Below are positions 30,001-33,000 of a stretch of DNA of 64,000 nt, one piece after another. How positions within the stretch are numbered: the stretch's first letter is position 1; the number at the start of each line of letters is the position of its first letter. Source of the stretch: a plasmid. A program made the position numbers. The stretch is taken from NCBI RefSeq assembly GCF_054482525.1, contig NZ_JBTHVG010000003.1; one strand, written 5' to 3'.

Positions 30001-33000
30001 AAGAACAGACCTTACGACAGGGAAATGGTAAGTAGTGCTTCTTGAAGCAGTCGAGTGTACAGCGGCTCAGTGAAAAAGCTAATCGCCCGCTCAACAACCT
30101 AGTGATACTGGTGCAGATTCGACAATGAGTTAATGCCCGGAGAGCATCTGCAAGACTTCTAGCTGGAAGGCATTCCAACCAGCCCTCGCTTCTGAAAAGC
30201 CGTCAGGAAACGGTAAAATCCAACCAAGTGAGCAACTTCACTTGATCAAAGATCTAAGGCTAGAATGATGGAATTACAACCTTAGTTTGCAAATAGCCAA
30301 TTTTTCAAACTTTGCTTACTTTGTCAAGGAAGGTGACCGCAGTAGCAGGCACAACTACTTTAATCTGTATGAATAATAAGGTAGAACCGGCCAGTGAATG
30401 AATGCTTACCCTGAAATCAGGCGGACAACCTTCAGGAATATTGATAGCAAGACTGAATCTCTCGCTGCGGCGATAAACATTTCGCCATAACCCTGAACGA
30501 GAGTGGTTCATCCATCATATACAGGAGCGTTACATGCGCAAATTTAAGTACATAATCTGTCACCAGTCCTGACCAAGGTCCTTTCGCCCGGGATGTTAGG
30601 TTGAATTGCTACGGGCGATGTGTTGTCACCGGCGTAAGGTCCCCCTGGCGTACTGAGGCCGCGCACTTAACGCCACGTCATGAAGAAGGCATTCCCGACG
30701 TAACGAACGGAATTTTACTTCGCCGTGATATCCATACACTGTTCGACAATGACCATTGCGCCATAAACCCTGACACTATGAAAATTTACTTCAGCCGGGA
30801 GGCCCGGGAGTTGGATGATGATCTCCTGAAATGGCATGGGAATGAGATAGAGACGACACGCATGCAGGTTCCGGTTAACATCGAAAACCTTCGGATACGA
30901 TGGCAAAAATTTAAGGCTAAGGATCGTCAGCGTAAATAAAGCCATAAGCTGAACCACGGCGAGGATTAGTCTTGTTCACTAAATGACAGCGAGAGATTAA
31001 ATGCAAACCCAAAAAGAAATTACAGTTGGCCAGATCTGGGAAGAAGTGGATCCAAGACTGATCCGGAAAGTGCGGGTTGTTGAGGTGGCCTCGTTAGAAG
31101 GGCCCAAAGGCATCCTTATCGAAAACGTGGAGTCTGGTCGTAAGAACTGGGCGTCGTCATCCCGCTTTAATGGAAAGCGTGGAGGGTATCGTCTTATTTC
31201 CTGACGGTTTTGCCAATATGGGAAACTGAAGAGGTTGAAACCATCCCGGTGAGGGAGCATATCTGGTAAAGAAGAGTCTTTAAAAAGGTTTTACGCGACC
31301 TGGGATAATAAACGGGAAAACGATACCCAAAAAAAGAATACAGCGATGATAACGATAAGGAATGGTAAGGGCTTCAATATTTTGAGAAATGCCCTGGCTT
31401 CCTTTGCATCTGCATTTCTAATCAAACTGTCCACATAGGGATCACAGCTCTTAGGTTCTGAATTTTTCATATGTTCTGTACCTGAAATTGATTCCGTATG
31501 AGAAAAGGCCACCGAAGTGGCCTCTATCAAAACTGGTGGCAAAAGTTAGATCAGGAAATCATCAAGACTTTTACCGGCTGCAATTTGTTCTGCCAGAGCT
31601 TTGGGGGTACGGCCCTGTCCAGTCCACGTTTTTGTTTCGCCATTTTCATCAGTAAATGAGTATTTGGCCGGGCGTGGTCCACGGCTTTTCTTGGTAGCCG
31701 TAGATTTGGCCTGGAATGAGCCAAGCAGCTCTTCCGGGTTGATACCATCTTCTTCCATTAACTTACGCAGGGCGTCAAGTTTCTCCTGACGAGCTTGCAG
31801 TTCGGCAGCTTTGGATGATTCTTCCTGACGACGCTCATCAACAATGACATTAAGCTTTTCGAGGATTTCCTCAAGTACTTCTAAAGGCAGCTCGCGGCCC
31901 TGGGCGCGAAGAGTACGAATATTGTTTAACGATTTGAGTGCTTCAGACATACGACCCCACTTTCTAATTCTTTGATAAGGATTTACTTAATCATAATACA
32001 CTCTATAAGGAAAAAGATGCCAGCTTTATGTCTTCAGGTACAAAGATATCTTGCTAAGAATACTCCTTATCTTCCTTGTGCAGACTGTTTCGTGCTTTCG
32101 ATGTTGTTCATGAGTCTTAAAATCTGCTCACTGTTTAGGGTACTCATGCTGTAAATCAGCAAGAAGGAAGCGCAGAACAACATAAGCAATCGGAAAAGGA
32201 AACCATGCCAGTGACAGGCCATATATAGCGGAGATAAACATAGGGTAATTTAACTCACTTACAAAATTCGCTTCATTGTATTGTTGAATCGAAATGGCAG
32301 AAGCAAAAATTATAATTAAAGTAAGAAAAATCCACTCTAGCCATCTCTTTTTATAACAAGCATAAGCGAAAGCTGTAGGGTAAAAAATAAAGCAAAAAAA
32401 TTCCAGCTGCAATTACGTTCATAAAAGTAACTTTCCTGATAGCGCCGTTATTTTTCGAATGCAGTATCATGAACAACTGCCATAACATTGATGATTGGCT
32501 TTCTTTTTCTGAAGAACCTTCCGCGCGGCAAAGTTTCTCCCGCTTTGAGACGATAAAGCCAGAAAACATAAGCCGGAGGAACATTGCTGTCAAAAATATC
32601 TGAACAAGTTTGAACTGTGATGCCTACTGTATTGTCTTTCCTCATCTCTTTAAAAGTGCCTTGCAATGCAGCGGATAACGTCATTTTTAAGAAACCTTTT
32701 TTCTGTTTGAACGGATAGACTTGACTTAGCTGGCTTGACTGTAATGTTTGCCACTAAAGATCCCTCGTTCTGAGGATGCAGGCACTACAAAGTTACCGTC
32801 AGGTCTAATCATACGAGTTTGGATGAAATTTTTGCCGGATTTGGTTTTTTCAACCTGGTGCTCGATCTTCCATTCTTCTTTGACGGGACCGGATGACAAA
32901 TGAACTAGAACCGGTACTTTTTTACGTGTTCTATCCAGAACAATACAATTTGATTTATCCGTATCAAAGCTTCCCTGAAGAGTATTCAAAGAGCAATTAT

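Follow-up and report, generated by a model that had tools for sequence, protein, structure and literature searches.

The 112-aa HNH_2 open reading frame (ORF) at position 30601 is an ordinary gene remnant, and very probably it is the 3' end of a 285-aa HNH gene of the IncHI2 plasmid backbone that lost its front in a 764-bp deletion. It lies in a 64-kb stretch of plasmid DNA (the window), which represents IncHI2 backbone and is 100% identical to many IncHI2A plasmids. The translation of the window gives a product of 112 aa that runs from a TTG to a stop codon at 30937-30939, contains CVVTGV, AAHL and NGILLRRDIHTLFD, and matches the complete HNH_2 profile PF13391 (profile positions 1-66 of 66, E 3e-13, 49.8 bits, with a gathering cut-off of 21 bits). 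The catalytic beta-beta-alpha-metal motifs AAHL, NGILL and DIHTLFD can be read from this translation, with the His of AAH, the Asn of NG and the His of the H..FD helix all present; these motifs align with their counterparts in the restriction endonuclease VcaM4I and are kept across the family alignment. The HNH_2-type core, the TTG start and the weak ribosome-binding site noted in a preliminary description of the locus are thereby confirmed. Apart from this TTG, no start codon in frame precedes the HNH core, there being no ATG or GTG; the ribosome-binding site of the TTG is poor, a weak GGGA ~7 nt upstream being the only Shine-Dalgarno-like sequence. Homology to full-length relatives extends 15 codons 5' of the TTG (SVTSPDQGPFARDVR), up to an in-frame TAA at 30553-30555, and the conserved PDQxPF helix of the HNH family falls in these 15 codons. 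Hence, the ORF is a truncated gene. The NCBI pipeline annotates it as an ordinary protein, WP_223231361.1, under the name 'HNH endonuclease signature motif containing protein'.

Table 1. Features of the HNH locus and its surroundings (positions of the window; a dot denotes no strand).
Position	Strand	Feature	Basis
24097..24912	+	Intact 271-aa HNH_2 protein, plasmid backbone	BLASTP, Pfam
25904..25911 (left), 30299-30306 (right)	.	8-bp target-site duplication AATTTTTC	Empty-site comparison
25912..30298	.	4387-bp transposase-less ISL3-family element, ISKpn25 relative	Inverted repeats, empty site, second copy
25912-25933 and 30277-30298		22-bp imperfect inverted repeats, 91% complementary	Repeat search
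26033..26287	+	hsdM 5' fragment, type I methyltransferase	PADLOC profile, inside element
26948..29988	-	Helicase/nuclease operon, element cargo	ORF calls and profile searches
26948-28987	-	679-aa UvrD-family helicase	
28984-29988	-	334-aa protein, CoiA_N-like N-terminus	
30534..30572	+	Stub of 102-aa CxxCxGxG zinc-finger gene (WP_001224687.1)	tblastn, locus comparison
30556..30567	.	Deletion junction, sole surviving copy of 12-bp direct repeat TCTGTCACCAGT	Comparison with intact alleles
30556..30600	+	15 in-frame codons SVTSPDQGPFARDVR, ancestral codons 159-173	Alignment, tblastn
30601..30939	+	112-aa TTG-start ORF, HNH_2 gene remnant (codons 174-285)	HNH_2 profile and locus comparison
31001..31204	+	Intact 67-aa gene, conserved small-protein family	Homologue alignment, 954 plasmids

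Related plasmids lacking the helicase/nuclease insert upstream of the ORF, a comparison proposed in the preliminary description, were found, e.g. NZ_CP024143 (p14EC029b). At this locus it carries WP_001224687.1 (102 aa) and WP_000784387.1 (285 aa), the latter labelled 'HNH endonuclease signature motif containing protein' by NCBI. Compared with NZ_CP024143, the window lacks a 764-bp segment, which is flanked there on both sides by the 12-bp sequence TCTGTCACCAGT. In tblastn, residues 159-285 of WP_000784387.1 and residues 1-11 of the zinc-finger protein map to the window, and residues 1-158 of WP_000784387.1 have no match anywhere in its 64 kb. WP_000784387.1 is thus an allele of the same locus, whose residues 159-285 are 100% identical to the 127 surviving HNH codons, while the window is without residues 1-158 and without the upstream 102-aa partner gene. 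The HNH gene had been described as decayed; what is found instead is one clean deletion with the remaining codons unchanged. As the surviving HNH sequence is undiverged, the deletion appears to be recent, and its junction suggests that the 12-bp repeat itself mediated the loss, via slippage or illegitimate recombination. The 764-bp segment is present in ~700 PLSDB plasmids, and the deletion junction is contiguous in 268. With the 285-aa gene at the same locus of ~700 related plasmids, the earlier view of the ORF as a remnant holds, and its presence at the same position of near-identical backbones speaks against an intact small HNH family member.

The ancestral HNH gene appears to have been the second of two genes in an operon, preceded by that of a 102-aa CxxCxGxG zinc-finger protein, which when intact shows a weak DnaJ_CXXCXGXG match. 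The deletion took zinc-finger codons 12-102, the intergenic ribosome-binding site and HNH codons 1-158, which comprise the reader domain and the linker; the original ATG and ribosome-binding site of the HNH gene belonged to the deleted segment. Of the zinc-finger gene, the AGGAG ribosome-binding site (30523-30527), the ATG and the first 11 codons are retained, and the stub now reads MRKFKYIICHQS followed by a stop codon, in a frame other than that of the HNH remnant. Together with the promoter, which is also retained, this ribosome-binding site and ATG would now drive a 12-codon peptide only, and the nuclease module can be translated solely from the poorly served TTG, 29 nt past the stop codon of this peptide. 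The product of the remnant is probably made at a low level, if at all, and, being without a DNA-modification reader, it would no longer work as a targeted restriction enzyme.

The 12-bp direct repeats around the 764-bp segment could in principle also be read as a target duplication, in which case the short allele would be ancestral and the segment would have been inserted in other IncHI2 plasmids, creating a gene fusion. We assign next to no probability to this order of events. The segment has no transposon features, its ends lie within two ORFs that are complete only in its presence, and in the short allele 11 codons of the upstream gene persist as a stub, while 15 homologous codons are cut off by a stop codon in front of them. 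In addition, unrelated genomes encode homologues of the two-domain protein with identities down to 34%. Full-length relatives (264-283 aa, 34-60% identity) align across both domains of the 285-aa protein, so the long two-domain form is ancestral; the PHROG and PADLOC profiles, which are 282-383 positions long, have the HNH module at the C-terminus. The conserved full-length family has effectively refuted an insertion origin.

The ancestral protein has a beta-barrel domain at the N-terminus (residues ~15-136) and, joined to it by a flexible linker, an HNH_2 nuclease with a helical tail at the C-terminus. Its AlphaFold2 model (mean pLDDT 77.8) has two well-predicted domains, and a Foldseek search with this model retrieved VcaM4I (E 1.6e-4) and TagI (E 1.3e-3); in a profile search of PDB sequences, VcaM4I was the only match. 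VcaM4I (PDB 6YEX, EVE-HNH) and TagI (PDB 6GHS, SRA-HNH) are modification-dependent restriction endonucleases, with which the 285-aa family shares just 11-18% sequence identity. The N-terminal domain, for which no Pfam match was obtained, is predicted to read modified bases as a PUA-like (EVE/YTH/ASCH-type) domain, and the intact gene is predicted to resemble modification-dependent (type IV-like) enzymes of the VcaM4I and TagI kind. A Mrr_cat restriction-type gene adjoins a 60%-identical homologue of the 285-aa protein. The zinc-finger gene, considered as a conserved partner of the HNH family, was discarded in this role, as it is absent beside the same homologue. On ~700 clinically important IncHI2 resistance plasmids the intact allele may be regarded as a candidate modification-dependent restriction enzyme, which, if true, could affect the phages and the incoming modified DNA tolerated by the plasmid hosts. 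In contrast to VcaM4I and TagI, the copy in the window has wholly lost the reader domain and would functionally be outside this enzyme class. In 268 plasmid records WP_223231361.1 represents a deletion remnant, and counts of defence genes or of small HNH family members should leave it out.

Small HNH subunits are paired with ATPases in two-gene defence systems, and the 112-aa ORF could likewise be a functional stand-alone HNH nuclease translated from the TTG, acting either by itself or jointly with a partner, for instance the helicase/nuclease pair. Neither its catalytic core nor its C-terminal helical tail is damaged or diverged, and with a complete core some residual activity is conceivable. 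The promoter region and the strong ribosome-binding site retained upstream would make transcription into the remnant likely, but the junction is out of frame, neither ATG nor GTG is available and the ribosome-binding site of the TTG is poor. The short allele is found in the 268 plasmids without further disruption; these carriers are, however, near-clonal at the junction (almost all with >=99% identity to the query), so its persistence is uninformative on selection. A stand-alone nuclease module would not be unprecedented, because ~9-11 of the ~140 relatives, most of which have 230-520 aa, are short proteins starting at the same domain boundary, recurrent examples being P0089, P0097 and, in Erwinia, P0004/P0021 (135-137 aa). 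Yet the short relatives start at a Met internal to full-length members (IMTRPDQ, TMSSPDQ), and in several the gene is evidently split or frameshifted (P0017 versus P0044/P0067). P0004/P0021 adjoin a split AAA_15/21 ATPase gene. The 135-aa homologue of Erwinia tasmaniensis, one short relative with the same domain boundary, was considered as proof of a stand-alone family and set aside as ambiguous, since its start is an internal Met and it lies behind a split ATPase gene. Finally, four plasmids combine the helicase/nuclease element with an intact HNH gene, which indicates that the element needs no truncated form. We therefore consider a stand-alone nuclease improbable and retain the interpretation of the ORF as a deletion remnant.

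The ORF had also been called a paralog of the HNH_2 protein encoded at 24097, with a pairwise alignment proposed as a check. The two are related: BLASTP aligns them with 31-32% identity over 108 aa (E ~1e-12), covering the HNH core and the C-terminal tail. The homology thus applies to the C-terminal nuclease module, while the N-terminal domains of the 24097 protein and the 285-aa protein show no similarity by BLASTP, in spite of a similar overall size and layout of both proteins. The 24097 protein is an old homologue of the 285-aa gene and not a recent duplicate. Its AlphaFold2 model, calculated from an 11-sequence alignment, was too poor for a fold search (pLDDT 53.9).

The helicase/nuclease block upstream of the remnant is a separate insertion, which took place earlier than the HNH deletion. 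It is part of a 4387-bp element that contains an hsdM 5' fragment, a small ORF, a UvrD-like helicase and a CoiA_N-like nuclease. At the empty site of NZ_CP024143 AATTTTTC is present in a single copy, and in the window it is duplicated. A second insertion site of the element shows a different target duplication, TAAACATA, while a third copy, found in Klebsiella on an IncF plasmid, is not flanked by a matching 8-bp duplication and supports inter-replicon spread, not a clean transposition event. The left end of the element (25912-26208) is 75% identical over 297 nt to the left inverted repeat and hsdM start of ISKpn25, and its right end is 78% identical over 51 nt to the right end of ISKpn25, an ISL3-family element of 8154 bp whose passenger genes form a type I restriction-modification system. 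AT-rich 8-bp target duplications are common to ISKpn25 and the 4387-bp element (PMC8768599). An assignment to the IS6 family, read from the GGCTATTTGCAA ends, was abandoned when the left end matched ISKpn25 instead; IS26 has GACTATTTGCAA near its end, which was the source of the initial IS6/IS26-like reading.

In ISKpn25 the transposase adjoins the right end, whereas ORF and profile searches revealed no transposase ORF or domain within 25912-30298; without a transposase, the 4387-bp element is non-autonomous. Compared with ISKpn25, hsdS and hsdR are also absent altogether and hsdM is largely so, and the UvrD-like helicase and the CoiA_N-like nuclease are found in place of the restriction-modification genes. 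The element is a diverged relative of ISKpn25 and not a deletion derivative of ISKpn25 itself, and the hsdM fragment is a vestige of the original ISKpn25-type restriction-modification cargo. This fragment, which matches positions 6-57 of the 661-position PADLOC MTase_I profile (E 4e-16), is real, as the preliminary description had stated. It is not, however, a decayed gene flanking the insert: it arrived together with the helicase/nuclease pair in the one 4387-bp element. Of the proposed bracketing of this pair by decayed genes, both the truncated HNH gene and the hsdM fragment thus exist, but the latter lies inside the element. There is an outside chance that ISKpn25-type ISL3 elements serve as exchangeable carriers of defence genes, with the type I cargo and the transposase replaced here by the helicase/nuclease pair and the cassette still mobile. 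The transposase-less cassette may have reached at least two IncHI2 sites and one IncF plasmid by movement in trans. More speculatively, the truncated HNH module might still be expressed and have been kept because it cooperates, or no longer interferes, with the new cargo. The transposon is a more notable by-product of the analysis than the HNH remnant.

Four complete plasmids combine the element at this site with an intact HNH gene, and 268 have both changes. In view of these 4 plasmids, the deletion came after the insertion. The repeated gain and loss of defence genes suggested earlier hence reduces, in the lineage of the window, to one transposon insertion followed by one deletion; elsewhere, the HNH gene may have been truncated independently, as suggested by the N-terminal sequences of two junction ORFs, P0003 and P0005, that run into it from an IS26 end. 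The locus exemplifies how the variable region of a resistance plasmid turns over in ordered steps: a transposon-borne helicase/nuclease cassette came in, and the adjacent nuclease gene was then lost by a short-repeat deletion. A literature search combining IncHI2, HNH endonuclease and helicase yielded nothing relevant.

The almost perfect linkage of the deletion to the element insertion (268 of the 272 plasmids) may raise the question of whether the HNH loss was adaptive. Modification-dependent enzymes are typically incompatible with their cognate methyltransferase, and a conflict with a Dcm-like methylase of the plasmid or with a methylase linked to the element is conceivable, as a cytosine methyltransferase is encoded at 45761-47188. 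This enzyme, however, belongs to the core IncHI2 backbone (1118 plasmids) and so is found alongside the intact HNH gene in hundreds of plasmids, for which reason the Dcm-like methyltransferase was rejected as the driver of the loss. The element holds only the hsdM 5' stub and no active methylase, and linkage in one clonal lineage amounts to a single event without statistical weight. An adaptive loss through such a conflict is therefore very unlikely.

The small ORF described beside the HNH remnant exists, but it is an intact conserved gene and no part of the remnant. It has an ATG start and the motif GQIWEEVDPR...RFNGKRGGY, and is present in 954 plasmids. Its product has no family in Pfam, PHROGs, NCBIfam or PADLOC, DUF6354 being a sub-threshold match only. 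A link to the HNH gene was considered and rejected, as the ORF 3' of the Erwinia HNH gene is unrelated and some homologues occur in other genomic contexts without an HNH gene. With homologues of 63-75 aa that share 55-72% identity and 9 invariant columns, the 67-aa ORF is an intact backbone gene in its own right, with no relation to the HNH gene.

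The ORF at 30601 agrees with its preliminary description in start codon, length, motifs and weak Shine-Dalgarno sequence (GGGA alone precedes the TTG), and this TTG is the sole in-frame start upstream of the HNH catalytic core. The entire Pfam HNH_2 profile (PF13391) is covered (E 3e-13; 49.8 bits, cut-off 21 bits). The proposed kinship with the intact 271-aa HNH_2 protein encoded at 24097 was borne out by pairwise comparison, with 32% identity over 108 aa (E 1e-12) to the C-terminal part of that protein. Upstream of the TTG, 15 further codons (SVTSPDQGPFARDVR) can be translated back to an in-frame TAA at 30553-30555; their similarity to the conserved helix preceding the HNH core in relatives gave the first hint of a truncated gene. 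Many conjugative IncHI2A plasmids from E. coli and Salmonella match this region at 100% identity, and in the annotation of NZ_CP022165 the identical TTG ORF appears as WP_223231361.1, under the name "HNH endonuclease signature motif containing protein".

Two proteins returned by the protein search, P0006 and P0007, carry the same HNH sequence fused to an unrelated N-terminal region. Alignment of the P0007 contig to the window is interrupted at 30556-30567 by ~753 bp of additional sequence in the contig. This segment occurs in ~700 PLSDB plasmids, 563 of which cover 80% or more of it. The IncHI2 plasmid p14EC029b (NZ_CP024143) served as the well-assembled reference for the locus. At base level 764 bp are missing from the window; two TCTGTCACCAGT copies flank that segment in the intact allele, and a single copy is kept at 30556-30567. 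By tblastn, residues 1-11 of the 102-aa protein match 30534-30566 and residues 159-285 of the 285-aa HNH protein match 30556-30936 with 100% identity, while residues 1-158 have no match anywhere in the window. The junction breaks the frame: the nuclease module reads in a different frame from the upstream ATG (30534), which with the kept AGGAG ribosome-binding site now encodes MRKFKYIICHQS, followed by a stop at 30570-30572. With the 285-aa allele at the same locus, the defined loss and the full identity of the retained residues, the reading of the ORF as a remnant, produced by deletion between direct repeats, is confirmed.

Coordinates of the features discussed (window positions unless stated otherwise)
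Feature	Position	Description
271-aa HNH_2 locus	23674-24912	136-aa gene, then HNH gene (24097-24912), 13 nt apart
278-bp miniature inverted-repeat element	26523-26800	ends TGCATATTCCGG... and ...CCGGAATACGCA; 5-bp duplication CAAGC at 26518-26522 and 26801-26805
112-aa HNH ORF	30601 (TTG) to stop 30937-30939	motifs CVVTGV, AAHL, NGILLRRDIHTLFD
67-aa ORF	31001-31204	intact gene; WP_001194555.1, hypothetical protein in NZ_CP022165
Block interrupting the IncHI2 backbone	33891-40788	~6.9 kb relative to NZ_CP022165; 6-base overlap at junction
Tn3-family transposase ORF	33913-36900	within this block
Resistance region	54118-63654	four IS26 copies, about 54121-54941, 56776-57595, 58635-59455 and 62832-63654
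p14EC029b HNH locus		102-aa gene WP_001224687.1, then 285-aa HNH gene WP_000784387.1, 15 bases from first stop
285-aa protein, predicted domain 1	residues ~15-136	N-terminal, mostly beta (AlphaFold2)
285-aa protein, predicted linker	residues 139-162	disordered (AlphaFold2)
285-aa protein, predicted HNH domain	C-terminal	confident (AlphaFold2)

The 102-aa gene (5967-6275 in the p14EC029b locus) shares an operon with the HNH gene in IncHI2 plasmids; it encodes two CxxCxGxG motifs, with a sub-threshold DnaJ central-domain match, and is not present beside the 60%-identical HNH homologue. The layout of a small gene and an HNH gene is common to this locus and the 24097 locus, where the 136-aa protein has a hydrophobic N-terminal stretch and no CxxC motif; by inspection, neither small protein seems related to the other. 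The N-terminal domain of the 271-aa protein gave a poor model (pLDDT 54).

Exhaustive searching without profiles turned up full-length relatives (264-283 aa) that align over both domains at 34-60% identity. The remaining relatives of the nuclease module mostly measure 230-520 aa and have the module C-terminal, as it likewise is in PHROG and PADLOC profiles. Judged from the two-domain relatives and the C-terminal module position, the long allele is ancestral and the window allele a deletion derivative that arose between short direct repeats. We consider it highly improbable that the short 112-aa form retains residual function: although about 9-11 of ~140 relatives are short with the same starting boundary, for example a 135-aa Erwinia tasmaniensis protein, they begin at a methionine that is internal in full-length members, some are plainly split genes, and the Erwinia gene itself comes after a split ATPase gene. 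Among the 268 deletion-bearing plasmids the junction is near-clonal (99% identity or more to the query in almost all), so their persistence is uninformative on selection.

AlphaFold2 models the 285-aa protein in three parts (mean pLDDT 77.8). The top two Foldseek matches in the PDB were VcaM4I (E 1.6e-4) and TagI (E 1.3e-3), both modification-dependent restriction enzymes, and VcaM4I was also the sole match in a profile search of PDB sequences; in NCBIfam the only models matched, both far below threshold, were one for a phosphorothioate-dependent restriction enzyme and one for a putative restriction endonuclease. Taken together, the fold and sequence matches make modification-dependent restriction enzymes the probable counterparts, and the ancestral gene is predicted to encode a reader-plus-HNH enzyme of this kind. 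The window copy keeps the nuclease module alone, with the predicted reader domain gone. While the remnant itself is an ordinary finding, the candidate reader-HNH enzyme on IncHI2 plasmids is a by-product of modest interest. The closest divergent full-length homologue, the 60%-identical P0009 (L006, its encoding contigs, 820-6912), adjoins an Mrr_cat/NA-iREase1 gene on one side and two large genes without domain matches (695 aa and at least 631 aa) on the other, which looks like a defence-island context.

The helicase/nuclease pair lies within 25912-30298 (4387 bp), a segment wholly missing from p14EC029b. Its termini are 22-bp imperfect inverted repeats (GGCTATTTGCAA...), and an 8-bp duplication, AATTTTTC (25904-25911 and 30299-30306), borders it on either side and is single at the empty site of p14EC029b. 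A 99%-identical copy, flanked by TAAACATA, occupies a different IncHI2 site in pC309-VIM4, and a Klebsiella IncF plasmid carries another without a clean duplication. These features mark the segment as a transposable element. Its left end, with the first ~58 codons of the hsdM fragment, shares 75% identity with the ISKpn25 left end, and its final 51 nt share 78% with the ISKpn25 right end. ISKpn25 generates AT-rich 8-bp duplications (PMC8768599). It is 8154 bp long and annotated as ISL3-like, and the copy examined carries hsdM, hsdS, hsdR and a transposase gene, whereas in the window element this type I restriction-modification cargo is reduced to a 5' hsdM stub, a UvrD-like helicase and a CoiA_N-like nuclease take its place, and ORF and domain/profile searches of 25912-30298 found no transposase. 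From the ISKpn25-like ends and the missing transposase, a single non-autonomous ISKpn25-like element (ISL3 family) carries both the hsdM fragment and the helicase/nuclease pair as cargo; this transposase-less cassette is also of modest interest. The HNH gene is plasmid backbone outside the element. The earlier picture of decayed genes bracketing an insert is therefore replaced by transposon insertion followed by adjacent deletion.

Nested in the element is a 278-bp miniature element that alters the C-terminus of a small ORF (26318-26635). It is absent from the pC309-VIM4 and Klebsiella copies, and small Aeromonas caviae plasmids carry sequences ~95% identical to it.

The element is present at this site in 272 plasmids, of which exactly four (NZ_CP073985 and three sister plasmids) have an intact HNH gene. 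From these four, insertion came first, followed by a single HNH deletion in one successful lineage. In this lineage the suggested repeated gain and loss at the site comes down to one insertion and one neighbouring deletion (268/272). Elsewhere, independent truncations mediated by IS26 are suggested by two junction ORFs, P0003 and P0005, whose N-terminal sequences indicate reading out of an IS26 end and on into the HNH gene. The plasmid cytosine methyltransferase (45761-47188) was rejected as a cause of HNH loss, as it belongs to the core backbone (1118 plasmids) and is found alongside the intact gene.

The 67-aa ORF is an intact gene, present in 954 plasmids. Homologues of 63-75 aa share 55-72% identity and nine invariant positions, and occur also in other neighbourhoods without an HNH gene. 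Pfam, PHROG and NCBIfam searches assigned no family or function to the protein. In p14EC029b, sequence 93% identical to the start of the 33891-40788 block meets the backbone at 31199/31200, a junction that changes the last codons of this ORF there. All four IS26 copies of the resistance region fall within the final 10 kb of the window.
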